43,010 bases of DNA from Parcubacteria group bacterium (GTDB taxonomy: Bacteria > Patescibacteriota > Minisyncoccia > Phycocordibacterales > JACNGX01): assembly GCA_014383885.1 (NCBI GenBank), contig JACNGX010000021.1:1-43010 (forward strand), written 5' to 3'. The notes beneath the pieces were generated by a model. The model was given only the letters and a program-made list of their open reading frames with translations, ran no database searches and was not told the origin of the DNA. Position 1 is the stretch's first letter. Each line of letters starts with the position of its first letter. This document shows positions 4,707 through 28,490 of the stretch, piece after piece. The translations under genes were made by a program, and so were the position numbers.

Positions 4707-4737
4707 TACGAAGTACGAACCCCTACGAACATACGAA
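4707..4737 (+). repeat. Full 31-nt tetra-hexamer motif TACGAA-g-TACGAA-cccc-TACGAA-ca-TACGAA.
   Basis: Read directly from the sequence. It begins 16 nt after the pilB stop codon. Confidence 0.8.
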
Positions 4738-4820
4738 TCTTGTTTCTTGAAAGAAAATTACTGTTATTCTGAATCAATTCCAGACTAACAGCAAAAGTGA
4801 GTGGTGAAGCAAAAGTCATG

Positions 4821-4834
4821 TTCGTATGTTCGTA
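4821..4834 (-). repeat. Partial motif in inverted orientation: TTCGTA-tg-TTCGTA, the exact reverse complement of 4724-4737.
   Basis: Read directly from the sequence. Confidence 0.8.
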
Positions 4835-5161
4835 TTGATTTGTAGTCCGTACCCCAACAAAAAAGAACGCATAATCCTCTAAACAAAACTTTAAGTAAAA
4901 ACACTGAAAGGAGAGTATACACTGAGGATAGTGTCAGCGCGTTCCACGTAAAGTGAAACACCAACACGTCCTTGCATATATTCCGTTATTTGTTTAGAGG
5001 ATTATACGTTCTTTTTGAATCCCGAATATACTGCTCGGGGGTGCAAAAGAAACGCCGCATCGACATGTGTGTTCGATTGCGGACGACTATTGAATATTCT
5101 TTTTTCAAGCATATATTCGAACGTCTCGAATGTATCAATATCCTATCATACTTGAAAAAAT

Positions 5162-6196
5162 ATGTCAACCCCTTCTCCAAAAAAGGATACCCCGCCCGAA
5201 AACACACACAAAGACGAGCAGGTCTTAGACACGACGCTCCGTCCGGTAACATGGAACGATTATATCGGGCAAGAACAGATCAAGAGCAATCTCCACATCC
5301 TTCTTTCGGCCGCAACCGAACGCAATCAAGCGCCCGAGCACCTTCTTTTTTACGGTCCTCCCGGACTGGGAAAAACAACGCTTGCTCACTTGATTGCCAA
5401 AGAAATGAATGCGCAGATGAAGAGCACTTCGGGGCCAGCAATTGAGAAGGTGGGTGATTTGGCGTCTATTCTTACCAATTTGTCTCCGGGAGACATTCTC
5501 TTTATTGACGAAATCCATCGACTCAATAAGCTCATTGAAGAAATTTTATACCCTGCAATGGAAACGGGCACGCTTGATATTATTATCGGTAAGGGTCCAT
5601 CGGCACGCACAATCCAGCTCGATCTTCCACCATTTACCCTGATTGCCGCAACTACGCGCATTTCACTTCTCTCTTCCCCGCTCCGTTCACGCTTCTCCGG
5701 CGGCACATTTCGTTTGGAGTTTTACACCGATGAAGAGATCGCTCGTATCGTAAAACGCTCGGCCGATATTCTCGGTATCGCCATGCCGTCTGAGGCGGCG
5801 GAAAAAATCGCCGGAAGAAGCCGGAAAACACCCCGAACTGCCAATTATCTCCTCAAACGATGTCGCGATTTTGCTCAGGTTCGCAAAAACTCTCTCAATG
5901 GAGAAGTGGTAAGCGGTGCGCTGGAACTTCTTGCAATCGATGAGCTTGGATTAAACGCCGGCGACCGCGCAATCCTCGATACACTCATTACGAAATTCGG
6001 CGGTGGACCGGTTGGTTTGAAAACAATCGCTGCGGCAATTTCCGAAGAGGAAAGCACTATTGAAGAAGTTCACGAACCATACCTTCTCCAGCTTGGGCTC
6101 ATCGACCGAACCCCCCGTGGACGCATTGCCACTGAAAAAGCATACCGCCATTTAGGACACAATATGCCGGAAGGTACACAGAATTCGTTGTTGTAA
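5162..6196 (+). CDS. ruvB: Holliday junction branch-migration helicase RuvB.
   Basis: 344 aa with GPPGLGKTT (Walker A), the LFIDEIHRL motif, and a typical RuvB C-terminal winged-helix region. Confidence 0.95.
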
Positions 6197-6253: not shown

Positions 6254-6784
6254 ATGTCTGGACATAACAAATGGTCAAAAATTAAACACAAAAAAGCTGC
6301 GACTGATGCGGCGAAAAGTAAAGTGTTTGGTAAAATCGTGAAGCTCATTGCCGCCGAATCAAAAAAGTGCGGTGGTGATGTAAACGCGCCGGGCCTGCGT
6401 GCCGCAATTGAGAAGGCAAAAGCGGTGAACATGCCATCGGATAACATTGATCGCGCGGTGAAGAAAGGTCAAAGTGCCGATCAAGCGACGATGGAGGTAG
6501 TGCACTATGAAGCGTATGGCCCGGGAGGATGTGGTATCATTATTACCGGATTGACCGACAACAAAAACCGTACTGCTCAGGAGATAAAGCACGCATTATC
6601 AAAAAATGGCATTGAGCTTGCCGCCCCAGGAAGCGCCTCATGGATGTTTGAAAACAATCAGGGAGAATTTTCTCCCACCACAACCGTCGCACTCTCCGAG
6701 AGTGATATGGGAAAACTCGAAACACTTGTTGAGACCCTAGAAGAAAACGACGACGTACAAGAGGTGTTCACAAATGTTGAATAG
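6254..6784 (+). CDS. yebC: YebC/PmpR family DNA-binding regulator (DUF28).
   Basis: N-terminus MSGHNKWSKIKHKKAATDAAKSKVFGKIVKLI is characteristic of the YebC family. It lies between ruvB and ruvC, as in many bacteria. Confidence 0.9.
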   Translation: MSGHNKWSKIKHKKAATDAAKSKVFGKIVKLIAAESKKCGGDVNAPGLRAAIEKAKAVNMPSDNIDRAVKKGQSADQATMEVVHYEAYGPGGCGIIITGLTDNKNRTAQEIKHALSKNGIELAAPGSASWMFENNQGEFSPTTTVALSESDMGKLETLVETLEENDDVQEVFTNVE

Positions 6785-6785
6785 T

Positions 6786-6816
6786 TACGAACTACGAATG
6801 TGTACGAACATACGAA
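6786..6816 (+). repeat. Full 31-nt motif TACGAA-c-TACGAA-tgtg-TACGAA-ca-TACGAA.
   Basis: Starts 2 nt after the yebC stop codon. Same 7/10/8 spacing as 4707-4737. Confidence 0.8.
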
Positions 6817-6975
6817 TACATACCATCGGCCGATATGTTTCTTCAATTCTCAACCCATACCTCGATATCTAAGATAGAACCTCTCGTGTCATGTCGCCAC
6901 TTTTAATATACGGAAGAAATACGCATACTTTACTCAAGAACACACCATAATCATGCTTATCCTTCAGACACCAAC

Positions 6976-6999
6976 TTCGTATGTTCGTATGTGTTCGTA
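6976..6999 (-). repeat. Three-hexamer motif in inverted orientation: TTCGTA-tg-TTCGTA-tgtg-TTCGTA.
   Basis: Read directly. It ends 12 nt before the ruvC ATG, and a TTTATA box lies between the repeat and the ATG. Confidence 0.8.
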
Positions 7000-7011
7000 C
7001 TTTATACCCCT

Positions 7012-7500
7012 ATGCGCATCATAGGTATTGACCCCGGTTTTGATCGTGTTGGCGTTGCGATTGTTGAAAAAGAGCGCAGCCACGATACATTGCTGTATTC
7101 CACGTGCATTGTGACCAATCGTGCCGACTCTTTTGTTGATCGACTGATGACAATTGCACGAGAGCTTCGCGCCATTCTGCAGGAATACCAACCCAATACA
7201 TGTGCCATTGAAACACTGCTCTTTGCAGCAAATAAAAAAACAGCAATGCAAGTCGCTGAGGCGCGAGGTGTTATTCTTTTTACTGCCCGGGAAGCAGGTT
7301 TGGAAATCGCAGAATACTCCCCTCTTCAAATCAAGACAGCAATGACGGGCTATGGAAAGGCAGAGAAATCTCAAGTGGAGGCGATGGTACGGCAATTGGT
7401 AAATGTCCCTGAAGGAAAGCGGCTCGACGATGAAATGGATGCGATTGCCGTTGGACTCACCGGCCTTGCTTCTCTTTCTTTTCCACAGACACAGCAATAA
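7012..7500 (+). CDS. ruvC: Holliday junction resolvase RuvC.
   Basis: MRIIGIDPGFDRVGVAIV... is the RuvC catalytic N-terminus. The ORF track starts at 6991, but the MRIIGIDPG start at 7012 is the conserved one. Confidence 0.9.
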   Translation: MRIIGIDPGFDRVGVAIVEKERSHDTLLYSTCIVTNRADSFVDRLMTIARELRAILQEYQPNTCAIETLLFAANKKTAMQVAEARGVILFTAREAGLEIAEYSPLQIKTAMTGYGKAEKSQVEAMVRQLVNVPEGKRLDDEMDAIAVGLTGLASLSFPQTQQ

Positions 7501-7697
7501 AAAGGGGCTTGCAAAGAATAGTGAAATGGATTACAAATAGTAGGATTATACGTTCATTATTTTTTTGTTTCTATTATGTCTATTGAAACAACTTTTTATG
7601 AAGAAGATACCCTGCTTGAAGGACTTGATGAACATGAAATAGTTGAGGACGGATGCGATGAAGTATCTCATGAAGATTTTGATATATAAAAGCAAAT

Positions 7698-7733
7698 CAA
7701 AAGCACCGCGGCGATGAGCCGCGGTGCTTTTGG
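7698..7733. terminator. Bidirectional intrinsic terminator shared by ruvC (+) and tyrS (-).
   Basis: CAAAA GCACCGCGGC gatga GCCGCGGTGC TTTTGG. Confidence 0.65.
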
Positions 7734-7748
7734 AATCTATCCCCCCCT

Positions 7749-9134
7749 TTATCCAACAACAATCCGCACAAAGCGATGTTTTCCGATACGATACGTATGT
7801 GTCGTTTCAATAACCATATCAATACTGGTCACCGTTTCTTTTGTTTCGAGAATATGCACCCCTCCCTGTGTGACAAGACGACGCGCATCGCTTTTTGAAT
7901 TTGCAAATCCGCGCTGCGCCAAAATATCTACCAATTTTTCTCCTTTTTGTGCGGTAATTTCTTCCACCTCTTCAGGAATCTCCTTTTTTGAAAACGTACT
8001 GATGAATATCTCTCGTGCCGTATCCGCCGCCAAAGTGCCGTGATAAATTGCCACAATCTGATGTGCAAGAGACAGTTTCGCGTCTTTCGGATTCACCGTT
8101 CCTTTCTTCATGCCACGCACAATATCTTCCACATCTTTCGGAGGCGTAAATGTGGTGAGGGTGAAATACTGCTCAATCGCACCATCAGGTACCGACATCA
8201 CTTTCCCAAACATATCCACCGGACTCTCGGTGATAGCAATATAGTTATCCAAACTCTTGCTCATCTTTTCTTTTCCTTCTGTTCCTACAAGAATATCCAT
8301 CGCCACAACCGCCTGCTGCTCTATTCCATTTACTTTCATCACATCACGCCCCACGTGCATATTGAAAAACTGATCAGACCCACCAATTTCCACATCACAC
8401 GATCCGTATATGCGAGAAAGTACTACCGAATCAATTCCTTGCAACACCGGATACATCACTTCATGCATGTAGAGTTCTTTTTCGCTTTTAATACGCTCTT
8501 GAAACATATCACGCTCGAGCAACCTGCTATGGGTAATGTGCCTCAGTGTGGCAATCATACCGCGCATGGTGATATTCATAATTTCCTTCTTACCAATCTT
8601 TTTCTGCATGCGAGTATTTTCAAAGAGAAGTGCCTTCCCCAAAAACGACCGCGGATTGATGGGAGTAACCCCCAAACGCATCAAGAGTCCTTTTTTTGGT
8701 TCCATATCCGACACCGACAAAAACCAATCGGAGTTGCGAATCCATGAAAACACTTCCGGCTTAGTGGAAAGCACCTTCCCCACCTGATCCAAATATGTCT
8801 GCATATTTACCTCAACTTCACGTTGATCGATTTCCGGACGTACCTTGCTTTTCCCCGAAGGGTCACCTATTTTTGCAGTGAAATCCCCCACCAAAAAGAC
8901 CACCGTACAACCGATATCCTGCAAGGCGCGAAGTTTGCGCAACACGACAGCGTGCCCAAGGTGAATGTCCGGACGTGTCGGATCCACACCGAATTTCACA
9001 ATAATCTTTCCTTCATACTCGCCACGCATCTTCGCCTCAAGTTTTTTTCTTAACACATTCTCAGGGTCAACCCATTCCGTCACTCCTCGAGAAAATATCG
9101 TATCAAGTATTGATCGAATCTCTTTTTCGTCCAT
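7749..9134 (-). CDS. tyrS: Tyrosyl-tRNA synthetase.
   Basis: HIGH-class motif HLGH, KMSKS motif, and a C-terminal S4-like domain. 461 aa with an internal insertion. Confidence 0.9.
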   Translation of the reverse strand: MDEKEIRSILDTIFSRGVTEWVDPENVLRKKLEAKMRGEYEGKIIVKFGVDPTRPDIHLGHAVVLRKLRALQDIGCTVVFLVGDFTAKIGDPSGKSKVRPEIDQREVEVNMQTYLDQVGKVLSTKPEVFSWIRNSDWFLSVSDMEPKKGLLMRLGVTPINPRSFLGKALLFENTRMQKKIGKKEIMNITMRGMIATLRHITHSRLLERDMFQERIKSEKELYMHEVMYPVLQGIDSVVLSRIYGSCDVEIGGSDQFFNMHVGRDVMKVNGIEQQAVVAMDILVGTEGKEKMSKSLDNYIAITESPVDMFGKVMSVPDGAIEQYFTLTTFTPPKDVEDIVRGMKKGTVNPKDAKLSLAHQIVAIYHGTLAADTAREIFISTFSKKEIPEEVEEITAQKGEKLVDILAQRGFANSKSDARRLVTQGGVHILETKETVTSIDMVIETTHTYRIGKHRFVRIVVG

Positions 9135-9196: not shown

Positions 9197-9219
9197 TTCG
9201 TATATGTTCGTACTTCGTA
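9197..9219 (-). repeat. Three-hexamer motif in inverted orientation: TTCGTA-tatg-TTCGTA-c-TTCGTA.
   Basis: Read directly. It sits immediately upstream of a TATACT box and the PBP start at 9241. Confidence 0.8.
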
Positions 9220-9240
9220 ACCATGCTATACTCTAATGGT

Positions 9241-11766
9241 ATGAAAAAACAAAAGAAGAGACATCGCATGTGGCACACTATGAAAACAGGGTTTATTGTT
9301 CTTTTCAGTGTTGGCCTTGTTTCACTGGGGGCACTACTTCTTTGGGCTGCGCTTATTCCACTCCCTGATTTCCATGCCTTTGAAGAGCGTGTCGTTGCTC
9401 AATCAACAAAAATATATGACCGTACCGGCGAGGTACTTCTCTACGACGTACATGAAGACATTACTCGCACTGTCGTGGATGGGAACGAGATCGCCCAAGT
9501 GATGAAAGACGCAACAATTGCGATTGAAGATGCCACTTTTTACGAACACGCTGGTGTTCGTCCGCTTGCTACACTGCGCGCCGTTTTTCTCCAACCGGTT
9601 CGTGGTAAAGGGGTGCAGGGAGGGTCCACCATCACCCAACAGGTGATAAAAAATACCCTTCTTACAAACGAACGCACTGTCCAACGAAAAATTAAGGAAT
9701 GGGTATTATCGTTTCGTCTTGAGCAAGTCTATTCAAAAGATGACATTCTCACACTTTACCTTAATGAAGCTCCATACGGAGGGACTATATACGGTATAGA
9801 GGAAGCATCTCTTGCCTTTTTTGGAGTGAACGCAAGTGAACTTACGCTTCCTCAGGCAGCAGTACTTGCCGCACTACCTCAGGCACCGACATACTACTCT
9901 CCCTACGGAAACAATACCCCAGCGCTAGGTGAACGAAAAAATCTTGTTCTCTATCGTATGTTTGAGGAGGGAATGATTTCAGAAAAAGAATATTCAGATG
10001 CGAAGAAAGAAGAAATTGTATTTCTCCCCCAGCGTGACACCGGTATCAAAGCTCCCCACTTTGTGATGTATGTTATTTCATACCTCGAAGAAACATACGG
10101 GAAAGAAGTTATAGAGCAGGGAGGGCTTGAAGTGATTACCACTCTCGATTATGAACTCCAAGCACAAGCAGAAGAAATCGTCAATCGGTACGCACTTGAA
10201 AACACTGAAAAATTCAATGCGGAAAATGCCGGACTTATTGCCACTGATCCAAAGACCGGACAGATTTTGGTCATGGTCGGATCCCGTGATTATTTTGACC
10301 CCGACATTGATGGAAACTTTAATGTTGCTATTGACCCTAATCGTCAACCCGGTTCGGCATTCAAGCCATTTGTATACGCCACTGCATTTGAAAAGGGGTA
10401 TACACCCGACACTGTCGTTTTTGATCTTCCCACTGTTTTTGATACCCGATGTAATCCCGACGGCACCCCCGCATACTCTGAAGTTGACGCAAAGGATTGT
10501 TATGCGCCGGTTAATTACGATGGGAAGTACAGTGGTCCAATAAGCCTTCGTGATGCACTTGCTCAGTCGGTCAATGTGCCGGCGGTAAAAACTCTGTATC
10601 TTGCAGGGCTTCAAGACTCACTCCAAACAGCAAAAGACATGGGTATTTCCGGACTCGGTGACATTGGTCAATATGGGCTCACTCTCGTATTGGGAGGTGG
10701 GGAAGTATCACTTCTCGATATGACAAACGCATACGGTACATTTGCCTCCGAAGGAGTATACCAAAACGAGTCTGCAATTCTCTCTATTACCGATTCATCA
10801 GGTCGTGAACTTGAGACGTGGGACAACACCTCTCGTCGTGTCATAGACACAGAGATCACCCGACTCATTTCCGATGTCCTTTCTGATAATACCGCTCGCA
10901 CGCCGGCATTCGGCGCAAATTCGTATCTCCACTTCGGCAATCGTGATGTTGCTGTAAAAACAGGGACCACCAATGATTATCGCGATGCCTGGATCATAGG
11001 ATACACGCCTTCACTATCAGTTGGTGCATGGGCGGGAAACAACGACAACTCTCCTATGGAGAAAAAAGTTGCTGGTTTTATTATCGCACCACTCTGGAAC
11101 GAGTTTATGCAGATCGTACTTGAGACCCTTCCCTACGAATCATTCACTGATCCAGCACCGACAAACAAACAGATTCCACCTGTTTTGCGCGGTATCTGGC
11201 AAGGAGGAAAAACATACACTATTGATGCCATAAGCGGTAATCTCGCAACAAAATACACACCAGAAGAAACACGGGAAGAAATCGCTATTGAAAATGTACA
11301 CACGATTCTCTATTGGGTTGATAGAGATAACCCACTTACACAAGAGCAACCAACCAGACCTGAAAAAGACCCTCAATTTATTCTCTGGGAAGAACCGGTA
11401 TTAGCATGGGCACAAAAGGAGGGATACAATACGGGAGGAGACACTTCCATACCCACTACCTATGATTCTATTCACATACCTGAAAACATACCTGATGTCA
11501 CTATTCTTGAACCAAAAAAGAAAGGGCAGTACACATCAAGTGAGTTTATCGATGTTGAGCTTGAATATGAAAGTACATACCCGATTACAAAAATTGACTT
11601 CTTTGTAAATGGTATGTTTATTGGGTCATCACACCAATCACCGTTTTCGTTTTCATTCTCTCCACAACAAATATCGAATATCCAAACAGAAAACACATTG
11701 AAGGTCATCGCTACCGACGCAGTGTTTAATAAAGGAGAATCTACAACACAATTTAAGGTGTGGTAG
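9241..11766 (+). CDS. Class A penicillin-binding protein (GT51 transglycosylase plus transpeptidase) with a C-terminal Ig-like extension.
   Basis: N-terminal TM helix. Glycosyltransferase motifs (EDATFYEHAGV, GGSTITQQ). Transpeptidase motifs SAFKPF (SxxK), SVN and KTGTT. The ORF track starts at 9175, but that extension contains the TTCGTA array, so the first ATG after it (9241, MKKQKK...) is preferred. Confidence 0.85.
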   Translation: MKKQKKRHRMWHTMKTGFIVLFSVGLVSLGALLLWAALIPLPDFHAFEERVVAQSTKIYDRTGEVLLYDVHEDITRTVVDGNEIAQVMKDATIAIEDATFYEHAGVRPLATLRAVFLQPVRGKGVQGGSTITQQVIKNTLLTNERTVQRKIKEWVLSFRLEQVYSKDDILTLYLNEAPYGGTIYGIEEASLAFFGVNASELTLPQAAVLAALPQAPTYYSPYGNNTPALGERKNLVLYRMFEEGMISEKEYSDAKKEEIVFLPQRDTGIKAPHFVMYVISYLEETYGKEVIEQGGLEVITTLDYELQAQAEEIVNRYALENTEKFNAENAGLIATDPKTGQILVMVGSRDYFDPDIDGNFNVAIDPNRQPGSAFKPFVYATAFEKGYTPDTVVFDLPTVFDTRCNPDGTPAYSEVDAKDCYAPVNYDGKYSGPISLRDALAQSVNVPAVKTLYLAGLQDSLQTAKDMGISGLGDIGQYGLTLVLGGGEVSLLDMTNAYGTFASEGVYQNESAILSITDSSGRELETWDNTSRRVIDTEITRLISDVLSDNTARTPAFGANSYLHFGNRDVAVKTGTTNDYRDAWIIGYTPSLSVGAWAGNNDNSPMEKKVAGFIIAPLWNEFMQIVLETLPYESFTDPAPTNKQIPPVLRGIWQGGKTYTIDAISGNLATKYTPEETREEIAIENVHTILYWVDRDNPLTQEQPTRPEKDPQFILWEEPVLAWAQKEGYNTGGDTSIPTTYDSIHIPENIPDVTILEPKKKGQYTSSEFIDVELEYESTYPITKIDFFVNGMFIGSSHQSPFSFSFSPQQISNIQTENTLKVIATDAVFNKGESTTQFKVW

Positions 11767-11859
11767 ATATAAAAAACAAAAAAGGAATATGGAATACGTA
11801 TACAAGCGCGGCAACCAACAGTTACCGCGCTTGTATACGAAACAATACACCTGAATATA

Positions 11860-12117
11860 CTACCGAATATCTCGCGGAGTACTATCACTGAGTGTTTTTT
11901 TGATATTGGAAAGAATAGCTTCTTTTCGCATCATTACTTCTGTTTTTATGAGTGGACTTGTTTCGAGATACACCACCCCTTTTTGCACGTTCACGTCGCT
12001 GATATTGAGTAATATATTATAATCCGACTCAAGTACCCTCACTATCTCTTTCCGTACCGACTCATCAGGAGGAGTGATAGAGGTGAACTTTTTTAAAAGT
12101 GTGGTGATGTGGTCCAT
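11860..12117 (-). CDS. Small DUF721/DciA-like protein (putative ancestral helicase-loader family).
   Basis: 85 aa ending in KGVVYLETSPLIKTEVMMRKEAILSNIKK, resembling the DUF721 core. It sits directly downstream of dnaN, which is the typical DciA context. Assigned by pattern only. Confidence 0.4.
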   Translation of the reverse strand: MDHITTLLKKFTSITPPDESVRKEIVRVLESDYNILLNISDVNVQKGVVYLETSPLIKTEVMMRKEAILSNIKKTLSDSTPRDIR

Positions 12118-12123
12118 ATATAG

Positions 12124-13224
12124 TTACCGGTTCATCGGCATCACAAGTGAGAGAAATGATTGATCACCAACTGACTCAATAATGAGTGGTTTATTTTCTC
12201 CTGCAAATGACACAGACACACTATCTCCTGAAAGTGAAGGGAAACTATCGGTAATGTATTTGTAATTCACATTAATAGTAATTAGTTCACCTGATAGTGA
12301 TGCTTGTAATGGTACTCGACTTTCTCCTACATCCGTATTTTTTGTTTCGATGATGTATGTCTTTTCTTTTGGATTCAGTGACATGGTTACTTGTTTAAAT
12401 GTGTTGGAAAACACTATACTCACCTTAAATGCATCGGTGAAATCTTTTTTAAGTACAATAGCAGTTGTTGAATATTCTTTTGGTATAATTTGGCGATAAT
12501 CAGGGAATGACCCATCAATAATGCGGGAAGTCACATACACACCCTCTTTCTCAAAGACAATCTGATGATCATTGAATCGAATATCCACATCCCCACTTAA
12601 TTGCTCGAATATTCTAATAATTTCCAAAGTGTTTTTATGAGGGATAAGTATTCCACCCCAATCATTCACATTTTTATGAGGTATTTTCTTTTCTGCTAAT
12701 CGAAACGAATCAGTTGCAACAAATACCAACATATCATGTTCAGGATACATATACACACTTCCAAGTTCAGGTTTTACATCTGAAAGCGATGAGCTATACA
12801 CCACGCTTTTTAATCCCTCAACAAGTTTTTTTACCGGAAGAGAAAAACTTGTCCCTTGATCAACAACAGGTAGTGAAGGAAATTCTTCCGGAGAAAGGCA
12901 TTTAATAAGTGTATTATTTCCTTGTATTGAAATGGTGAGATTTCCTTCTTTCTCCTCAACTTCAAGAGTACCGTCTCCTGAAATACCTGAAAGAAAACCA
13001 CTGAATACAGATGCTGGCACTGCAACAATACCATCACGATCACTTTTTACTGGAAGCTCTATTTCAACACCAATATCAAGATTGGTTGCGCGAATCATCA
13101 TACGCTTTCCTGAAACCTCAAGAATGATTGATGAGAGAATAGGGAGTGAGAGATTTTTCCCTGTTATTTTCTCCACAAGAGAAATTGTTTCGGAAAGAAG
13201 TTTTTTTGGACATGAACATTTCAT
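12124..13224 (-). CDS. dnaN: DNA polymerase III beta sliding clamp.
   Basis: 366 aa with a three-domain clamp-like organisation. Located immediately downstream of dnaA. Confidence 0.9.
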   Translation of the reverse strand: MKCSCPKKLLSETISLVEKITGKNLSLPILSSIILEVSGKRMMIRATNLDIGVEIELPVKSDRDGIVAVPASVFSGFLSGISGDGTLEVEEKEGNLTISIQGNNTLIKCLSPEEFPSLPVVDQGTSFSLPVKKLVEGLKSVVYSSSLSDVKPELGSVYMYPEHDMLVFVATDSFRLAEKKIPHKNVNDWGGILIPHKNTLEIIRIFEQLSGDVDIRFNDHQIVFEKEGVYVTSRIIDGSFPDYRQIIPKEYSTTAIVLKKDFTDAFKVSIVFSNTFKQVTMSLNPKEKTYIIETKNTDVGESRVPLQASLSGELITINVNYKYITDSFPSLSGDSVSVSFAGENKPLIIESVGDQSFLSLVMPMNR

Positions 13225-14905: not shown

Positions 14906-14925
14906 TGTTGATAACATGTGGATAA
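14906..14925. promoter_or_regulatory. Tandem DnaA boxes upstream of dnaA: TGTtGATAA-ca-TGTGGATAA (the second is a perfect consensus).
   Basis: Read directly. They lie about 90 nt upstream of dnaA on its coding strand and immediately adjacent to the TACGAA array. Confidence 0.6.
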
Positions 14926-14930: not shown

Positions 14931-14961
14931 TACGAATTACGAATCGCGCGAATATACGAAT
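14931..14961 (+). repeat. Full 31-nt motif with a degenerate third unit: TACGAA-t-TACGAA-tcgc-GCGAAT-at-TACGAA.
   Basis: Same 7/10/8 spacing as the other full copies. Confidence 0.75.
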
Positions 14962-15033
14962 ACAACTTTTGTTACAGTACTCAATTTTGTTGTCATCCCG
15001 CACTTAATGTGGGATCTATTTGAGTTTATTACT

Positions 15034-15060
15034 GGATTCCTGGTCAAGCCAGGAATGACA
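15034..15060 (+). repeat. 27-nt hairpin repeat GGATTCCTGGtcaagCCAGGAATGACA.
   Basis: Exact reverse-complement copy at 34833-34859. A related CCAGGAATGACA occurs at 2823-2834. Confidence 0.7.
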
Positions 15061-15104
15061 GATATATGTATTTAGGTAGGTTATTTTCTTAGATTCGTAA
15101 CTGC

Positions 15105-15132
15105 TTGCATTTTAACACCAATACGGTATAGT
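15105..15132 (+). promoter_or_regulatory. rpmH promoter TTGCAT-N16-TATAGT. The ATG lies 9 nt downstream, so the mRNA is probably leaderless.
   Basis: Read directly. Confidence 0.5.
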
Positions 15133-15141
15133 AGTTCCACT

Positions 15142-15276
15142 ATGTCCCAGACGTATAAACCAAAAAATAGAAAACGCAAAACAACACACGGTTTTTTGGT
15201 GCGTAAAGCAACACCAGGGGGTCGTGCAGTGCTTAAGAATCGACGCCGTAAAGGGCGTAGTAAACTTTCCGTGTAA
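15142..15276 (+). CDS. rpmH: 50S ribosomal protein L34.
   Basis: [44 protein letters not shown]. Not in the ORF track because it is under 60 aa. Confidence 0.9.
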
Positions 15277-15336
15277 TCTTTTACATATTTCTTCGGAGAG
15301 CATCCCATACGGGGTGTTTTTCTGTATAATATAGTT

Positions 15337-15678
15337 ATGTTGCCGAAAAATAGACGTATCCCCACACTGTGGTTTAAAGAGCGGTATCGTCGCATCACAA
15401 CACAAAAAAGCCCTCATATATCAATGAGTGTGTTTGAAGCGCATAAAAAAGACTCCCCTACCTGTTTTGCATGTGTGATATCAAAAAAAGGTGGACTCAC
15501 AGCAGTGAAGAGGAATAGTATCCGCCGGCGCGCGTATGCGATTCTTGAAGAATTACTTCCTTCTGTAAAGGGTGGATTGTATTGCACGCTCTCGCTCTCA
15601 AAAGAGGTTGATGGTATGTCGTATGACGAATTGAAAGGACAAATAACAAATCTCTTAAGAAAAAGCAATGTTGTATAG
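15337..15678 (+). CDS. rnpA: RNase P protein component.
   Basis: 113 aa with ...ISKKGGLTAVKRNSIRRRAYAIL..., in the conserved rpmH-rnpA context. Confidence 0.85.
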   Translation: MLPKNRRIPTLWFKERYRRITTQKSPHISMSVFEAHKKDSPTCFACVISKKGGLTAVKRNSIRRRAYAILEELLPSVKGGLYCTLSLSKEVDGMSYDELKGQITNLLRKSNVV

Positions 15679-15682: not shown

Positions 15683-15728
15683 TGAACATACCAGTGAACA
15701 TACCAAGGTATGTTCACTGGTATGTTCA
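15683..15728. repeat. 46-nt perfect palindrome: two 22-nt arms (TGAACATACCAGTGAACATACC / GGTATGTTCACTGGTATGTTCA) separated by AA.
   Basis: Read directly. It lies between the rnpA stop codon and the yidD start and overlaps yidD's first codons. Confidence 0.8.
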
Positions 15729-16167: not shown

Positions 16168-16196
16168 TTGCTTTAGAGACTAAAACAGCGTACAAT
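16168..16196 (+). promoter_or_regulatory. yidC promoter TTGCTT-N17-TACAAT, with the ATG 10 nt downstream.
   Basis: Read directly. Confidence 0.45.
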
Positions 16197-16206
16197 AGCT
16201 TGTATT

Positions 16207-16995
16207 ATGATTGGTTTTTTCGAGACAATTATTTATCAACCCCTCTACAACGGTCTCGTATTTTTGGCATATTTTATGCCGTGGGCGGATATTGGCTTGG
16301 CGGTGATTACCCTTACGCTTGTGGTGAAGTTTATTCTTTTTCCTCTGACACATAGCACAACAAAAAGTCAAGTGAAAATGCGTGAGATTGAGCCGGAACT
16401 CAGTAAACTTAAAGAAGATCTCAAAGACGATAAGGAAAAACAAGCGCGTGAGCTTATTGCGCTCTACAATAAGCATGGCATCAATCCGGCGACAGGGTGT
16501 GTGGCACTTATCGTCCAGCTCCCGATTATTCTCGGACTGTATTGGGTGTTTAAGGATATTTCATTTGACCCGACAGCAACCGGTGCGATGATTGAAAACG
16601 GCGTACGCGCCGCGGGCACCTTTTTGAACGAAGCAATTCTCTATCCGGTCACTCCCCGTCCGGAGTATCTTCATACTGAATTTTTGGGATTCATTGATAT
16701 GACCGGTAGGAGTATTCTCCTCGCTGTTCTTGCGGGTATTACGCAATTTTTCCAAATGAAACTCTCTATGCCGGGCGAGAAACCAACGCTACAAAGCACT
16801 GGATCATTCAAAGATGATCTTATGCAAAATATGAAATTTCAGATGCGCTACGTGTTTCCTTTCTTTGTGGTTATTTTTGCCTACACGATTTCTTCAGCGA
16901 TTGCGTTGTATTGGGTGGTGAGCAACCTTTTTGCTATCGGGCATGAATGGCATGTGCGAAGAGAATATGCACAATTGAAGGAAAACAACGAGTAG
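16207..16995 (+). CDS. yidC: Membrane protein insertase YidC/Oxa1 (short Gram-positive type).
   Basis: 262 aa polytopic protein in the rnpA-yidD-yidC context. Confidence 0.85.
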   Translation: MIGFFETIIYQPLYNGLVFLAYFMPWADIGLAVITLTLVVKFILFPLTHSTTKSQVKMREIEPELSKLKEDLKDDKEKQARELIALYNKHGINPATGCVALIVQLPIILGLYWVFKDISFDPTATGAMIENGVRAAGTFLNEAILYPVTPRPEYLHTEFLGFIDMTGRSILLAVLAGITQFFQMKLSMPGEKPTLQSTGSFKDDLMQNMKFQMRYVFPFFVVIFAYTISSAIALYWVVSNLFAIGHEWHVRREYAQLKENNE

Positions 16996-17560: not shown

Positions 17561-18862
17561 TCAGTAATTCACAGTCTCAAATGCATCGGCAACGCGAAGA
17601 ATCCATGGTGTCATATCGCGTTTGTTAGTGAAGAGGAGAAAAGATTCATCTTCACTGAGAACAGGGTTGATGAGATCAATAGCTGTATCATACATATTCG
17701 GATCAACAAGGAAAAAGCCGATAGACTCTTCGGTGTCATAATACCAGATGCTGTCTTCAAAGAATAGTTCTCCTTTGTACCATGTGTCGGGGTATCGTGT
17801 GAAAGGAAGAGAAAATGGTACACCACAGTAGATTCCCTTCCCTTCTGCATCCCAGGTGCATTTCTCAGGAAGTGTATCAAAGAGAAGTGCAGTTTCTTCT
17901 CCATCGGAGAGGATTTTCAGTGTGAGTGTGTTTTCCGAACTTTCAGAGAAAAGTATTTTTGTGCCATCAGGACTTGTGAGCGTGGTAAGACCGCTAACAC
18001 CACTTAAGATTGGATTGAGCGTATTTGAGAAGAGAGAAAGATAATAGCTGTATCCTGGAATTCCCGCTGCAGGCTTTGTGGTGAGATAAATGTAGTCGTT
18101 TTCCGCCCAATCGATAAGCCACTCGGAAAGGGGCGAGGAAAATGCTTCTTTTGGTTCCTCACCGGAAAATGGTACGATAATACCGCGAGAGCCGCTTGTT
18201 GTACGTTCAAGGAGAAAAAGAGAGTCTTGAGTGGGGTTGGTGTCGAAAGCAAGGGTACCAGTGCGGAGGAACTCTGCTCGAGCAAGTCCAATATCACCGC
18301 CCTCTTCTTCCGCTGTGAAAATCGAAATTCCGGTTCCCTCAATAATATCATCGTCATTGAGTGTACGCGCAAAGAATTCCGTGCCGTCAGTATTCCAAAG
18401 CGTGTCATGGATGTGTGGTATGGTTGTATTGGTGATGCGTTCTGCCCCAAGTGTGTCTACAGGGATATCAAAAATATTTCCCGTTGCCTTTTCTATCACA
18501 CGGACAATGAGGATATTCTTTTCTTCCTCGGACCCTTCTGTTGATTGAGGGAGTGTTATAAACGTTGCCCCCGATACGGGCTCAGGGAATACTTGCGAAA
18601 TGAGATCGACGCTCAGTTGTTTTTCGTCGTCCTGTGGTGTTTTGTCAGGAGAGTCTCCATCTCTCTCTTCACTACCAAAGAGGGAGTCGAGCACACCCTC
18701 ACCTTCTGCGCCACTAAAGAGAAAACCAAAGAAGCCATTATCTCCCACCCCCTCAGAAGAGTTGCCACCGCGACCAAAGAGAAATATTCCAACACCAAGG
18801 AGAACGATGAGGAGAATAGTACCTCCCCAGATGAATATGCGTTTTTGCTGAGAACTATTCAT
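17561..18862 (-). CDS. Membrane-anchored hypothetical protein (N-terminal TM, an acidic linker, and a large extracytoplasmic domain).
   Basis: 433-aa ORF. N-terminus IFIWGGTILLIVLLGVGIFLF. First gene of the minus-strand block that contains the T4SS genes. Confidence 0.6.
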   Translation of the reverse strand: MNSSQQKRIFIWGGTILLIVLLGVGIFLFGRGGNSSEGVGDNGFFGFLFSGAEGEGVLDSLFGSEERDGDSPDKTPQDDEKQLSVDLISQVFPEPVSGATFITLPQSTEGSEEEKNILIVRVIEKATGNIFDIPVDTLGAERITNTTIPHIHDTLWNTDGTEFFARTLNDDDIIEGTGISIFTAEEEGGDIGLARAEFLRTGTLAFDTNPTQDSLFLLERTTSGSRGIIVPFSGEEPKEAFSSPLSEWLIDWAENDYIYLTTKPAAGIPGYSYYLSLFSNTLNPILSGVSGLTTLTSPDGTKILFSESSENTLTLKILSDGEETALLFDTLPEKCTWDAEGKGIYCGVPFSLPFTRYPDTWYKGELFFEDSIWYYDTEESIGFFLVDPNMYDTAIDLINPVLSEDESFLLFTNKRDMTPWILRVADAFETVNY

Positions 18863-18871
18863 ACTTATTGA

Positions 18872-19903
18872 TTATTGGAAAAATGTATTTTCGGTGTCTC
18901 CGAACGTAATGGACAATGTTTCTTTTAAGCTCTGTAGCATGCGATCGGTATACGTAACTGAGAGTGAAAGGGCCGTGTTTCCTGTTGTTCCTTCCGGCAC
19001 ATCGATTGCCAAATCACCCGGGTTGTTCCAGTGTGACGAGACATGTCTTCCTCCTACCGACCAGTCGTAGGAAAGAGATGAGCGATTGTGATTGTCTGTG
19101 GAGAAGAAATAGGGCTCAGCACGGATGACAGTTTCTCTTTCTCTAAGGAGGATACCATTGACAAGAGCTTCATTAAAGCGTACACCAAGCGTGGGATGTT
19201 CTTCATAAAATATAATTTCTGGATCGACCTCGGGAAGGTTAATAGATTCACGGGCGCTGAGTGATCCGCCCGGAGATGTGGCGGTGACAGACACGGTTTC
19301 ATTCGGTAGGAGAATATCTTTCATGAGAAGAAGTGTTGAGCGACCGTACCCAGATTGACTTTTTGTGTCGCGATAAAAACCATTACGCTGCCAAGTGTAG
19401 GTGATAGTGTCGGCATCGAGCTTTGTGCCATTTCCCGTTGTAAGGTGTGGAACAGCAATAACTTTTACGTGTGCCTGAGAAGCCGGTAGTGCTTTTCCAC
19501 GGTAAAAAGGCGGTGTGTAAGCATCAATCGCTTCCCAGAGCAAATCGACGCCTCCTCCAGGTGTAAAACGAACAGTTTTGGTAATTGTTTCATTATCCGG
19601 TGAGACGATTGTCGCGGAAATAGTCATGGTGATTCCGGTATTTCCAGCTTCGGTACTGAAGGTGTTGAGGCCTGTTCCTTCAGAACGATAGGCACCATTT
19701 TCATACCACGTAACATATGCGCGATTCATATCAAACGCGAAGCTTGATACTGAAACAGTGATCATCTCACCTGCCGCCGGATATGCCGGCTCAACATCAA
19801 CAGAGACATACGATTCAAGCGCGTGAACATGAGATATCACAGCACAGAGTGAGAGTGTGATACCACATATGAGAACTGACATGTGGAAAATAAAGGATTT
19901 CAT
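18872..19903 (-). CDS. Secreted hypothetical protein.
   Basis: Signal peptide MKSFIFHMSVLICGITLSLCAVISHVHA (start at 19903, 8 nt after the VirB4 stop). The ORF track extends artificially to 20086. Confidence 0.6.
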   Translation of the reverse strand: MKSFIFHMSVLICGITLSLCAVISHVHALESYVSVDVEPAYPAAGEMITVSVSSFAFDMNRAYVTWYENGAYRSEGTGLNTFSTEAGNTGITMTISATIVSPDNETITKTVRFTPGGGVDLLWEAIDAYTPPFYRGKALPASQAHVKVIAVPHLTTGNGTKLDADTITYTWQRNGFYRDTKSQSGYGRSTLLLMKDILLPNETVSVTATSPGGSLSARESINLPEVDPEIIFYEEHPTLGVRFNEALVNGILLRERETVIRAEPYFFSTDNHNRSSLSYDWSVGGRHVSSHWNNPGDLAIDVPEGTTGNTALSLSVTYTDRMLQSLKETLSITFGDTENTFFQ

Positions 19904-19910
19904 AGAACTA

Positions 19911-21776
19911 TTATACCACGCCAGCGATACGGGAGAGTGGATTATCCGGCGTTTCATTCTCACTGCTTTCTTTAAGTGCTTTCTTTGCTTCACGAATCTG
20001 GAGTATTTGTGAGGGGTCCGAGGTAATGATTTGTTCTTCAGTGTAAGAAGCGAGGATTTTAATGGCGACATGCTTGAGTCCTGCAAAGAAGATACCTTCT
20101 CCTACATCGGATTCGAGAAGTAAGAATTTTTCCTCCTCAGTGAGGTTGAATGTTTTTTGGACGGTGTCGATGGCTGTGGGCGATTGTTTCAAGAGAAGCT
20201 GAATTGAAGAGTTGGTGATGATCGGTAAACCATACGGCGACCGGAGGAAATCGGACACGTCTTGGGTGATGGTGGCGACTCCTAGATAGTATTTTCTACC
20301 GCGCTTTGTCATGCCGAAGAGAAATGATGCCGTATCTTCGGATTTCATCATCCACCACGCCTCGTCGATCACAAGAAGGCGTTTTTTCAGCTCGCGACGA
20401 ACGGCATTCCAGATAAAGTGGGTAATGATGTGCATGGCGACGGTTTTAAGTTCGTCTTCCATGTCGCGAACGGAGAAGACCACAAACTTTTTGTTGATAT
20501 TTATGTTGGTTGGACGGTTAATGAATTCCGCCCACGTTCCTTTCGTATATTTTGAAAGACGACTTAAGAGAGATTCCCCCCCTTCCATGCCGGAGAGGAC
20601 CATTTCAAAGTCGGAAAGAAGTGGTGGGACAATTTGTGAGAGATCTGAATCAGGAGTGATGTCTTTGAGTGCATATGTTTCCGTGATAGCACGGTCAATA
20701 ATGGAGTCTTCTTCAGGGGAAAGACCGCCAAGCATGATGCGGAAAAGACCGACGAGTGAAATGGTATTTGCACGGAGGACGTCAGCAGTTGTCTCATCTT
20801 CGCTCGGCATAGGAAGATCGAACGGATTGATATGGTGTGGGGAGCTGAGTGAAATATTGAAATGGCGACCACCTGTAGCCTCTGCCATAAATTCATATTC
20901 ACGTTCAGGGTCAATTACGATTACTTCCGTATCAAACATGAGAGTACGGAGAATTTCAAGCTTGGTGGAGAAGGACTTTCCGGCGCCAGAAGTGGCAAAA
21001 ATGACGGAATTATAGTTTTCCATTGAGAAGCGATCGAAAAGAACAAGACTGTAATTGTGTCGATTGATGCCATAGAGAATGCCGCGGTCGGATGTGAGGT
21101 TGAAGGAAATAAAAGGAAATATGCTTGAAAGCGGTGAAGAATTGAGTTTTGAGTGAATGCCGAGCGAGTCGGATCCGGAAGGAATGACGCTTTTGAACGC
21201 GTCTTCTTGCTGAAAAAGACTTGGCTTGAGATAGACAAGCTTTGATTCAAGAATTGATTTGATTTCCGATTCAATACGATCAAGTTCTTCTTCTGTTTTT
21301 CCGTAGACGGTGATATAGAGACCAACGTCAAAGAGACGCTCTTGCGCCTGTTGAAGCTGATCGCGGAGGTTTTCAAGATTGGCATATGCGGCAGCAAGCT
21401 TCGGGTCACGCACCATGCCACGCTCCTCACGCATCATGATTTGGCTTTCAACCTCAGCAACTTTCTTTTGGAATTTGCGCAAAATAGCCGCGGTGTCCAC
21501 CGGGTGAATATGGATGGAGACGTCGAAGACAGCGTCGAGATTCACAATCGGCGAGAACCAGCTGTCGGCGAGATAACGTGGGTAGGAGATGACGAAGAAT
21601 GTGCGAGCGATACGGTCGCCTAAATTGAGTTCGCGCGGAGTGATTTTGAGCGCCGAAGGAGCGATGACATCTTTTAATTCCAATACTGCCGATTCATATA
21701 TTTCATGTGGTAATACAGGCACCGCCTCCGGGGTGTCTTTTTTCTTCCCTATTCCTAATGTGTTAAGAAGTGACAT
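19911..21776 (-). CDS. virB4: VirB4/TraE/PrgJ-type conjugative T4SS ATPase (core portion).
   Basis: Walker A FATSGAGKSF, Walker B LVIDEAWWMM, and the Gram-positive VirB4 N-terminal signature LGDRIARTFFVISYPRYLADSWFSPIVNLDAVFDVSIHIHPVD. First ATG at 21776. The frame remains open up to 21839. Confidence 0.85.
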   Translation of the reverse strand: MSLLNTLGIGKKKDTPEAVPVLPHEIYESAVLELKDVIAPSALKITPRELNLGDRIARTFFVISYPRYLADSWFSPIVNLDAVFDVSIHIHPVDTAAILRKFQKKVAEVESQIMMREERGMVRDPKLAAAYANLENLRDQLQQAQERLFDVGLYITVYGKTEEELDRIESEIKSILESKLVYLKPSLFQQEDAFKSVIPSGSDSLGIHSKLNSSPLSSIFPFISFNLTSDRGILYGINRHNYSLVLFDRFSMENYNSVIFATSGAGKSFSTKLEILRTLMFDTEVIVIDPEREYEFMAEATGGRHFNISLSSPHHINPFDLPMPSEDETTADVLRANTISLVGLFRIMLGGLSPEEDSIIDRAITETYALKDITPDSDLSQIVPPLLSDFEMVLSGMEGGESLLSRLSKYTKGTWAEFINRPTNININKKFVVFSVRDMEDELKTVAMHIITHFIWNAVRRELKKRLLVIDEAWWMMKSEDTASFLFGMTKRGRKYYLGVATITQDVSDFLRSPYGLPIITNSSIQLLLKQSPTAIDTVQKTFNLTEEEKFLLLESDVGEGIFFAGLKHVAIKILASYTEEQIITSDPSQILQIREAKKALKESSENETPDNPLSRIAGVV

Positions 21777-21780
21777 AGTG

Positions 21781-22431
21781 TTATAGTTGAATCGGCTTAT
21801 CAAGTTCGCCGGGATTAAATATGCGGTAAAAAAGTTCAATCAATTCTTCCGTACCCAGAGGCGATGTGCGGATACCGGTACGGACAAGTCCTTGTTGTAC
21901 GACATAGGCACGCTGTTCAAGCTGGGAGCGATTTACTTCAAATTCATCCTGCTCTTTATCCTCCCCTCTCGAGCGCTTTTTCTTCGTTCCTAAAACATCG
22001 CCAAGAATGCCTGTGTCGGTTGCAATGAACGAAGGGGTGTATGGGACGACGATGAAAAAGTTCTTTGACATGATATTAGTCTGTTCGGTAAATGTTTTAA
22101 TGAAGCGAATGTATTCGCGAATCTGTACTTTTGAGAGGTCGTTTATCTGCTCTTTTTCGCGCCGTTCGAGAAGCGCGACATAGGGGCGAACGTCATATCG
22201 TCGAGATTGGATGTAGATTTGTACCGAGAAGTCAAGCGAGTTGAGAAAGTTTTGAAATTGAATGAGAATAGATTGCTGTTCGTCGGGAGACTTAAGCGAC
22301 ATATTCACCGATGATGTCATGAGTACCATCTTGAGCGAACCGTCTTCCATCACCGCCACACCGTCTCGTACCTCTTTGATAGGCACGAATCGTTGTGATG
22401 CTTGTGATTTTTCTTTGTTTGATGTTGGCAT
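21781..22431 (-). CDS. VirB4 N-terminal-extension-like protein. It is a separate ORF; VirB4 may be split or frameshifted here.
   Basis: FVPIKEVRDGVAVMEDGSLKMVLMTSSVNMSLKSPDEQQSILIQFQNFLNSLDFSVQIYIQS resembles the N-terminal extension of long Gram-positive VirB4 proteins. Its stop codon lies 4 nt from the virB4 ATG. The two frames overlap across the A6 run at 21828-21833. Confidence 0.55.
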   Translation of the reverse strand: MPTSNKEKSQASQRFVPIKEVRDGVAVMEDGSLKMVLMTSSVNMSLKSPDEQQSILIQFQNFLNSLDFSVQIYIQSRRYDVRPYVALLERREKEQINDLSKVQIREYIRFIKTFTEQTNIMSKNFFIVVPYTPSFIATDTGILGDVLGTKKKRSRGEDKEQDEFEVNRSQLEQRAYVVQQGLVRTGIRTSPLGTEELIELFYRIFNPGELDKPIQL

Positions 22432-22446
22432 GGTGCTAATAATAGC

Positions 22447-22866: not shown

Positions 22867-22939
22867 AGTTGAGTCGCAAGCTTTGAGCGCTGGTATCTAC
22901 AATACTAGCCGGCGCGCTACCGCGCGCCTCACTCCTCTT

Positions 22940-23599: not shown

Positions 23600-23605
23600 T
23601 AATGA

Positions 23606-26149: not shown

Positions 26150-26164
26150 AGCACTATTATAACA

Positions 26165-26198
26165 GAAAAAACACGCCTTCTGCATAGGTGAAGGCGTG
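26165..26198 (-). terminator. Intrinsic terminator after the lipoprotein gene.
   Basis: CACGCCTTC (9-nt loop) GAAGGCGTG, followed on the minus strand by TTTTTT. Confidence 0.5.
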
Positions 26199-26208
26199 TG
26201 TATAGCAA

Positions 26209-26778: not shown

Positions 26779-26857
26779 TTTTTTCTCCGTTTTGAGGCGG
26801 CGGCGTGAGCCGCCGCCTGGTTTATTTGTACAAGTACAAGATAATTTATTCTGCTTA

Positions 26858-26886: not shown

Positions 26887-26930
26887 TAGGATGTTTTGAG
26901 AGGGTGTGGATAACTTTGTCCTCAAAAACA

Positions 26931-26966: not shown

Positions 26967-26978
26967 TGAGAGTTGCTT

Positions 26979-28466: not shown

Positions 28467-28490
28467 AGGTGTGCGGATAATGAATAATAA

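Follow-up and report, generated by a model that had tools for sequence, protein, structure and literature searches.

Two inverted arrays of a short hexamer, TACGAA and its complement TTCGTA, enclose the spacer between yebC and ruvC on a 43,010-nucleotide contig of a Parcubacteria group bacterium (JACNGX010000021.1; the whole stretch is called the window here), and the question raised by this locus is what such a long-range complementarity stands for. A first-pass annotation had taken it for a stem-loop of approximately 214 nt that is specific to this spacer. We found that the element is a copy of a dispersed repeat family. The reading that we prefer, and hold as a composite with about as much confidence as doubt, is that the yebC-ruvC feature is one member of an intergenic palindromic TACGAA-array family of Parcubacteria/Patescibacteria that is folded, recognized by a factor, and used as punctuation of mRNA.

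The inverted arrays are present as the annotation had claimed, they bracket the whole spacer, and they are not a product of chance. The stop codon of yebC (TAG, 6782 to 6784, plus strand; yebC was identified from the Pfam families of the orthologues, TACO1_YebC_N and Transcrip_reg) lies 1 nt 5' of the left arm, which occupies 6786 to 6816 of the plus strand and consists of four TACGAA hexamers, at 6786, 6793, 6803, and 6811, separated by c, tgtg, and ca. The annotation had listed three of them, from 6793 onwards; these are in place, and the one at 6786 has to be added. The left arm is followed on the plus strand by TACATACC (6817 to 6824), the interior or "loop" of the element (6825 to 6975), and the right arm (6976 to 7006), in which TTCGTA hexamers at 6976, 6984, and 6994 are separated by tg and tgtg and followed, after a single c, by TTTATA. 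This last sequence, at 7001 to 7006 of the plus strand and not at 7000 to 7005 as annotated, is the fourth right hexamer in a decayed form (CG to TA); it reads TTCGTA in the related loci L001 and L208 and TTTGTA in L201, L204, and L211. The sequence cccct and the ruvC start codon (ATG, 7012 to 7014) complete the locus (7007 to 7014, plus strand), so that the right arm does adjoin the ruvC start, with an array-to-ATG gap of 5 nt that is also the modal distance in the family. An inverted-repeat search recovered the arms as 6790 to 6816 and 6976 to 7002 (27 nt, 81% complementary). TACGAA occurs 41 times in the window, compared to 22.3 ± 5.0 expected copies, a count reached by none of 100 shuffles, and the excess is concentrated in a few intergenic clusters. 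The composite unit of four hexamers, with starts 7, 10, and 8 nt apart over 31 nt, recurs elsewhere in the window.

A scan of metagenome contigs revealed the exact four-hexamer array in more than 120 stretches among the matches listed, and the corresponding scan of viral contigs returned no match. From the listed matches, 58 distinct inverted pairs at 53 loci were drawn; as the scan demanded one perfect arm, the hexamer statistics describe the partner arm. Hexamer cells are 94% complementary (58 pairs, one arm of each not ascertained) and the inner 2-nt spacer is mostly paired. The middle spacer shows 24% Watson-Crick pairs, which is the chance level, and is of unequal length in 26 of the 58 pairs (45%). 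Loops range from 0 to 164 nt with a median of 19 nt; that of the yebC-ruvC copy measures 159 nt. Flank position 1 forms Watson-Crick pairs in 88% of cases versus 56% in shuffles, and flank position 2 in 61% versus 28%, with all four pair types represented; neither value was reached in 2,000 shuffles, and pairing from position 3 onwards is at chance. The consensus object is a palindrome of 2 × 33 nt, in which each arm combines four TACGAA hexamers, spread over 31 nt with starts 7, 10 to 11, and 8 nt apart, with two covarying flank bases, and its consensus fold comprises a stem of about 15 bp, an internal loop of 4 to 5 nt, a stem of 14 bp, and an arbitrary terminal loop. The hexamers and the two flank pairs are thus under selection, with the middle spacer unpaired and the loop free. 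An inverted partner of at least three hexamers within 330 nt accompanies 73 of 140 perfect arms. Array-bearing loci span 30% to 61% GC (the taxonomy of the metagenome loci was checked for one locus), and in L152 an array lies 4 nt 5' of a RuvC gene whose product is about 40% identical to that of the window's clade and has relatives labeled Moranbacteria/Parcubacteria, which indicates that the hexamer is conserved across deep divergence. tRNA scans of the window and 80 loci showed no association of arrays with tRNA genes.

Members of the family are placed at gene boundaries. The outer end of an array lies 3 to 10 nt (mode, 5) 5' of a start codon or 1 to 8 nt 3' of a stop codon, and the element usually occupies the entire gap from the stop codon of one gene to the start codon of the next. 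Where both neighbors were callable, the flanking genes are codirectional for 22 pairs, divergent for 4, and convergent for 1. Three elements in L093 lie in one ribosomal-protein operon, before genes with N termini reading as L16, L24, and L6, and an element in L156 is located in a 16S rRNA leader, where a perfect TTGACA-17-TATAAT promoter precedes it and the mature 5' end follows after 12 nt. Such elements lie within transcription units. The 130 array-flanking open reading frames (ORFs) carry 164 Pfam families, most commonly T2SSE ATPases, glycosyltransferases, and ribosomal proteins, and no coherent regulon was apparent among them. No Pfam signal of a transposase or integrase was detected in 30 ORFs of the window or in the 130 flanking ORFs; in particular, Y1_Tnp had no match in the 30 window ORFs nor among the 25 commonest families of the flanking ones.

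Comparison of orthologous spacers showed that the arms are conserved at this locus. Nine syntenic relatives were recovered, and six loci carry TACGAA arrays (the window, L201, L204, L211, L208, and L001). At this site, the remaining four loci, from three relatives (L202, L207, and L209/L210; RuvC 80 to 82% identical), carry arrays of CAAAT/ATTTG-type units together with a nested hairpin module. Mean pairwise identity among the six orthologues is 91 to 92% in the arms, 96% in the hexamers only, 76% in the spacers within the arms, and 63% in the interior, which tolerates insertions; at 4-fold degenerate sites it is 46% in ruvC and 56% in yebC. The window and L204 share 31 of 31 positions in the left arm and 29 of 31 in the right, with 53% identity in the interior and 38% at 4-fold sites of ruvC, and the left arm is identical (31/31) in L201 and L204. 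Arms that are so much more similar than 4-fold sites are constrained or homogenized and are not decaying junk. Part of this constraint acts on sequence and not on pairing, since TACATACC (alignment columns 36 to 43) is invariant in all six orthologues and has no complement on the right side. One of the tolerated insertions, in L208 (8661 to 8953), is a 66-nt palindrome with perfect arms (GAACCAATTAAATAACCT...AGGTTATTTAATTGGTTC) that interrupts the interior relative to L001, apparently with a duplication of TAA.

Close relatives differ by the gain, loss, and replacement of whole elements and by truncations that arose through slippage. The closest genome in the collection, L001, whose RuvC is 75 to 77% identical to that of the window, contains four inverted array pairs within 3.3 kb, in the pilB-ruvB, ruvB-yebC, yebC-ruvC, and ruvC-downstream spacers, and three of the four are missing from at least one relative. 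The ruvB-yebC and ruvC-downstream elements are missing from the window and, among the relatives compared, occur in L001 only, and the pilB-ruvB element is missing from L208. In the yebC-ruvC element of L001, slippage between two TACGAAC repeats has removed the 17 outermost nucleotides of the left arm, and the right arm is perfect, with four hexamers. The right arm 5' of ruvC in L001 (7965 to 7998) is, over 34 nt and including spacers and flank, the exact reverse complement of positions 8537 to 8570, the left arm of the lineage-specific element 3' of ruvC. The whole ruvC gene of L001 thus lies inside a perfect inverted repeat, which suggests templated copying between arms.

The window itself holds further members, all on the plus strand. 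A second complete one fills the pilB-ruvB spacer (4707 to 4851; arms 4707 to 4737 and 4821 to 4851) with the same 7/10/8 hexamer spacing. A solitary right-type array, three TTCGTA hexamers separated by tatg and c, lies at 9197 to 9219 and is degenerate in L001; it precedes the PBP1A gene, which has ATGs in frame at 9223 and 9241. A degenerate member in the dnaA-rpmH spacer (14931 to 15099) has a left array at 14931 to 14960, a single TTCGTA at 15094 to 15099, and a nested hairpin module inside. A perfect DnaA box, TGTGGATAA, is situated directly beside this last array (14917 to 14925), the dnaN-dnaA/rpmH-rnpA-yidD-yidC region resembles a replication origin, and no TACGAA element of the window is more than about 10 kb away from it. 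TACGAA also occurs once per copy in a 41-nt unit at the window's end (42843 to 43002), where 3.9 copies follow one another head to tail with 99% identity.

How such an element would act can be outlined from its architecture. The hexamer array would be what a sequence-specific trans-acting factor, probably a protein, recognizes; a conserved factor of this kind is implied by a 6-nt unit that is kept at 30 to 61% GC and at 40% RuvC identity, under constraint, between the stop and start codons of core genes. The two arms would fold back on each other, in the transcript and/or in extruded DNA, into about 15 bp, a 4 × 4 internal loop, and 14 bp, and such folding is favored over a rigid duplex site by the covariation of the flanks and the indifference to loop length. 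At yebC-ruvC, the fold would loop out the 159-nt spacer, bring the yebC stop codon beside the start codon of ruvC, which has no Shine-Dalgarno (SD) sequence, and bury ruvC positions -5 to -36. The most likely consequence would be punctuation at the mRNA level of the kind associated with REP (repetitive extragenic palindromic), ERIC, and Correia elements (precedents in PMC2649163 and PMC2229807). Translational coupling or unmasking by a ribosome that terminates on yebC, or a site of processing or stability, are candidate outcomes; a dedicated riboswitch-like regulator of ruvC is unlikely.

Several observations weigh against this reading of the family as folded, factor-recognized punctuation. 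No trans-acting factor was identified. For 50 of the 140 perfect arrays (36%), no partner is recognizable within 330 nt, and a hairpin can therefore not be a requirement. Solitary arrays beside a start codon favor the TTCGTA-to-ATG orientation (17 versus 6), a hint that it is the single array, and not a hairpin, that has a polar role close to the gene. In the lineage of the window and L201, the outer right arm is eroding (27/31 identical, no better than the interior), and gene conversion among copies could partly explain conservation at a single locus. Gene starts, to which the distances given above refer, were called from ORFs only. With the sense strand set by the adjacent start codon, mismatches across the family comprise 22 G-U and 32 A-C cases (P = 0.22), a test that has limited power and in which strict sequence recognition would disfavor G-U as well; the lack of a sense-strand G-U excess argues against pairing selected purely in RNA. 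Direct repeats indicative of a target-site duplication were not seen at three filled/empty sites (pilB-ruvB for L208, ruvB-yebC and ruvC-downstream for L001 versus the others), where resolution is limited by divergence, and no pair of plus and minus arrays enclosing 0.4 to 3 kb with a transposase was found in the window, L001, or L081 to L160. In view of this lack of a duplication, an autonomous parent, and a transposase, the mobility of the family is inferred from presence and absence only.

An action on duplex DNA fits part of these observations. Each 31-nt array might be bound independently by a DNA-binding protein that is abundant and present throughout the lineage, e.g., a repressor, a roadblock, an insulator, or a nucleoid protein; an inverted pair would then amount to two opposed sites, with no need for a hairpin. 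Solitary arrays, which make up one-third of the perfect ones, with their start codon bias at a fixed distance of 5 nt, would be expected of such a protein. The same holds for a hexamer whose sequence is retained in either orientation next to variable spacers, for mismatches without strand asymmetry, and for the conserved right arm of L001 despite its truncated partner. Mixed TACGAA/TACAAA arrays in L208, whose other arm carries the matching TTCGTA/TTTGTA, are also in agreement with this explanation. However, a duplex-binding protein does not require two flank bases to covary through all four Watson-Crick types. Furthermore, the arms lie anywhere from 0 to 164 bp apart without a preferred phasing, the 7/10/8 steps between hexamers are out of register with the helical repeat, the flanking genes form no regulon, and a roadblock or operator would have little purpose within ribosomal-protein operons or a 16S leader. 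We consider duplex-DNA arrays unlikely, though the least unlikely of the alternatives.

Less likely again is the explanation from which the annotation started, a plus-strand RNA structure specific to this locus. Here, a transcript reading through from yebC into ruvC would fold into the stem-loop of about 214 nt, with a stem of 24 to 31 bp that includes four G-U pairs, and would sequester the 5' region of ruvC. The underlying observation is correct: the opposed tgtg spacers give U-G, G-U, U-G, and G-U on the plus strand and C-A mismatches on the minus strand. RNAfold of 6782 to 7014 (plus strand) paired the arms continuously, with a minimum free energy of -42.2 kcal/mol (z = -2.3). On the minus strand of the spacer, both hexamer helices were retained around a 4 × 4 internal loop. 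When the arms were joined by a GAAA loop, the folding energies were -30.1 kcal/mol for plus-strand RNA and -25.9 kcal/mol for minus-strand RNA; changing the left spacer to AAAA, which leaves no G-U pairs, gave -28.7 kcal/mol, changing it to CACA (Watson-Crick) gave -38.9 kcal/mol, and DNA parameters yielded -19.4 and -19.0 kcal/mol for the plus and minus strands, respectively. The four G-U pairs are hence worth about 1.4 kcal/mol over an open internal loop. The run of G-U pairs does belong to the plus strand only, but the minus strand forms a stem as well, and a pairing "on the plus-strand RNA only" is therefore overstated. The family as a whole likewise bears no signature of sense-strand RNA pairing: its middle spacer is unpaired, and sense-strand G-U mismatches do not exceed A-C mismatches. 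A G-U pattern seen in one genome is poor evidence of an RNA function, and the element may act as RNA or as DNA.

Compensatory changes in related yebC-ruvC spacers had been proposed as a check of the RNA structure. The tgtg positions are pairable on the plus strand in four of five genomes, with the states UGUG/UGUG, UGUG/CGUA, and CACA/UGUG: in L201, tgtg faces cgta (two Watson-Crick and two G-U pairs), and in L211, caca faces tgtg (four Watson-Crick pairs). These two look like compensation via G-U intermediates on the plus strand, the spacer positions occurring in three pairable states (U-G/U-A/C-G and G-U/G-C/A-U). Across the orthologues, 17 G-U and 3 A-C cells were counted on the plus strand, traceable to about 4 to 8 versus 3 events. 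However, the changes from tgtgt to cacac (L211) and from tgtg to cgta (L201) are multibase switches in short branches and are more likely single templated events, which leaves few independent ones. In a pair-count test of the six orthologues, 94.1% of cells were paired, compared to 93.7 ± 0.4% in shuffles; 250 of 500 shuffles scored as high, and only one pair had changed on both sides. Pairing is also broken in places: tcaa faces tgtg in L208, where two of the four spacer positions pair, L001 retains the right arm without the outer half of the left, and three relatives carry the different arrays described above. A structure specific to this locus would leave the use of one hexamer at unrelated loci and in distant lineages unexplained.

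The annotation had also read TTTATA as a box of a leaderless ruvC promoter, with the right arm overlapping the -35 region. This assignment does not hold, since TTTATA is a decayed hexamer that reads TTCGTA or TTTGTA in all five relatives and has no sigma-70 match. Such a promoter would call for a -10-like hexamer with A at position 2 and T at position 6, at a suitable distance from a -35 box and from the ATG and retained in relatives. A sigma-70 scan found no promoter-like site on the plus strand between 6786 and 7011, and a terminator scan found no terminator-like site on the plus strand at the element, where the right arm runs directly into cccctATG. The lack of a terminator between yebC and ruvC and a ruvC start with neither an SD sequence (cccct) nor a well-placed -10 box agree with the read-through that the RNA structure supposes. 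The arrays were also considered as promoters of the sigma-70, extracytoplasmic function (ECF), or Bacteroidetes type; their spacing fits none of them. Many other genes of the window, e.g., pilB, rnpA, rpmH, the PBP1A gene, and tyrS, have a TATAxT or -10-like box 6 to 16 nt (mostly 6 to 12 nt) before the ATG and no SD sequence (regions 2970 to 2990, 5140 to 5164, 9225 to 9243, 15125 to 15145, 15320 to 15339, and 16185 to 16209). In place of such a box, yebC is preceded by CCTCCTAA repeats. Judged from these sequence patterns, leaderless mRNAs or mRNAs with very short leaders are suggested for the lineage.

The least likely of all is a purely selfish miniature inverted-repeat transposable element (MITE), whose arms would be terminal inverted repeats of transposase-binding hexamers and whose yebC-ruvC copy would have no host function: inverted termini, small size, multiple copies, presence or absence of whole elements, copies on one contig that share arm spacers and not loops (L147 and L093), and other MITE-like insertions in the same spacers are as expected, but arms that remain 91 to 92% identical at a fixed locus where synonymous sites are near saturation (46 to 56%) are not expected of a dead nonautonomous copy, no target-site duplication is visible at the three comparisons, searches of the window, L001, and the surroundings of 130 arrays found neither an autonomous element nor a transposase, and the two arms differ in their middle spacer even when their flanks have remained paired.

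Among known systems, REPINs are closest to the TACGAA family in behavior, Correia elements in genomic role, and attC sites in architecture. REP/REPIN elements of Proteobacteria are mobilized by RAYT transposases (PMC3116915, PMC3337134, and bioRxiv 10.1101/2021.07.10.451892). They resemble the TACGAA family as short extragenic repeats in inverted doublets that can fold into a long hairpin whose mismatches are at set positions, with singlets beside doublets, many copies, vertical inheritance, and long persistence. The combination of inverted doublet, short spacer, and hairpin that defines REPINs is present here (73 of 140 arms; median loop, 19 nt), as are the terminal inverted repeats of MITEs (31-nt arms and two covarying flank bases). 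In contrast, the REP unit is an imperfect palindrome, whereas a TACGAA arm consists of four direct repeats and is not self-complementary; the RAYT transposase of REPs, a Y1 HUH enzyme whose gene usually has the repeats on either side, was not seen among the TACGAA-family sequences searched; the host phylum is another; and TACGAA elements abut start codons with a modal gap of 5 nt.

Correia repeat-enclosed elements (CREE/nemis) of Neisseria measure 100 to 160 bp and have inverted repeats of about 26 to 30 bp (PMC2649163; reviewed in PMC2229807 and PMC10969869), and the hairpin in their transcripts is bound or cut by RNase III (PMC2649163). Like TACGAA elements, they are intergenic, bounded by inverted repeats, end beside gene starts, and vary in presence between strains. 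They are cotranscribed with neighboring genes and their ends can alter expression, to which the location of TACGAA elements inside transcription units corresponds. Correia elements differ in their TA target duplications, IHF site, and conserved core and have no sequence relation to TACGAA elements, which possess an arbitrary interior (0 to 164 nt), hexamer-array termini, and no visible duplication.

Integron attC sites are recombination sites that act as folded single strands, with the core motifs RYYYAAC/GTTRRRY. They share with the TACGAA element conserved paired boxes, an unpaired central spacer, a variable terminal structure, and a position after a stop codon between co-oriented genes, but have two boxes per side instead of four. 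The attC core motifs are not found in the arms, the window holds no integrase, and attC sites accompany cassettes, whereas the neighbors of TACGAA elements are core genes (ruvB, yebC, ruvC, ribosomal protein genes, and 16S). Intercistronic RNase III processing hairpins are known from phage T7 early mRNAs and from rRNA leader stems. These, too, are hairpins with internal loops that lie between cistrons of polycistronic transcripts or by the mature 16S 5' end; they have no conserved repeated hexamer and form no dispersed family, and cleavage of TACGAA elements is a candidate function. Membership in the REPIN, Correia, and attC families thus fails on the nonpalindromic unit and the absence of a visible RAYT; on the missing duplication and core; and on the missing motifs, integrase, and cassettes, respectively. 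Also set aside were a DNA uptake sequence, a LexA/SOS box, a Spo0A-like box, and an inverton, together with the attC site, on grounds of copy density, missing motifs, diversity of neighboring genes, or loops too short to invert. No Rfam family matched the window at gathering score; relaxing to E ≤ 1 to 5 for the region and 13 array-bearing loci brought up only subthreshold chance matches to microRNA hairpins. A full-text literature search returned nothing linking TACGAA/TTCGTA, MITEs, or REPs to Patescibacteria, the candidate phyla radiation (CPR), or Parcubacteria. The TACGAA arrays are best read as a new family of REP- and MITE-like repeats that form hairpins.

The window and its relatives hold other repeats and structured segments. 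Between the pilB-ruvB element and ruvB, a 157-nt segment (4860 to 5016, plus strand) is closed by a stem of 27 to 28 bp and is about 95% identical in L001, L204, L207, and L208, above the identity of neighboring proteins. RNAalifold predicts 57 pairs in it, 2 of them compensatory, and there is no Rfam match; the segment is probably a structured noncoding RNA gene, as far as this predicted fold and the conservation can tell. Downstream of ruvC, a conserved acidic ORF of 37 amino acids (7576 to 7689, plus strand; MSIETTFYEEDTLLEGLDEHEIVEDGCDEVSHEDFDI), with an equivalent 36- to 37-amino-acid gene in all relatives, is followed by a strong hairpin (7698 to 7732). An inverted pair of another unit, with four AGCTTAT/ATAAGCT heptamers (2712 to 2746 and 2933 to 2967), encloses a bidirectional terminator-like hairpin (2743 to 2781) and ends 20 nt before the pilB ATG; an AAGCT array as in this pair precedes yebC in L207 (3383 to 3443). 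The rnpA-yidD junction (15683 to 15728) is a perfect palindrome with two direct 12-mers per arm (GTGAACATACCA twice), and its right arm contains the yidD start codons. The sequence GAACATAC has 8 copies in the window versus 1.3 expected, always within palindromic elements. A two-hairpin module (CTGTCATTCC..GGAAT/GATCCCGC..GCGGGATGACAG) lies nested within the loop in several elements (window 14990 to 15062 and 2810 to 2837; L001 5540 to 5620, 8600 to 8680, and 10525 to 10550; L209 1853 to 2092) and stands alone in the ruvB-yebC spacer of L204 (5108 to 5246); it is probably an independent MITE. On the minus strand, 17561 to 29480 holds mostly unannotatable ORFs, with a TraG/VirB4-like ATPase (19911 to 21839) and a PrgI-family protein (22447 to 22866). 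The cluster resembles a type IV secretion or conjugation module and contains no TACGAA arrays.

Almost nothing is known of the noncoding signals of CPR bacteria. The most far-reaching proposal that we draw from the family is a long shot: the TACGAA hairpin might be a dedicated, sequence-specifically recognized intercistronic signal that lets Parcubacteria, whose genes often have no SD sequence, express internal cistrons. This proposal derives from the SD-less genes with -10-like boxes, the 5-nt gap between array and AUG, the elements inside ribosomal-protein operons, the one element 12 nt before a 16S gene, and the 16S rRNA of L177. In the latter contig, which bears a TACGAA array, a 2.7-kb 16S rRNA gene with insertions (9940 to 12679) has the 3' end GGATCAATTATTTTT, without the CCUCC anti-Shine-Dalgarno sequence; TACGAA was not found in this rRNA when complementarity to the hexamer was considered. 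By one route, the juxtaposition of stop and start codons would allow the terminating ribosome to unmask, or be shunted to, the next AUG; by the other, an endonucleolytic cut would yield near-leaderless mRNAs and the mature 16S 5' end. For annotation, the family carries the warning that a conspicuous long-range "stem" in such a genome is a copy of a repeat. For biology, the element offers a handle on operon punctuation in streamlined, often SD-poor genomes.

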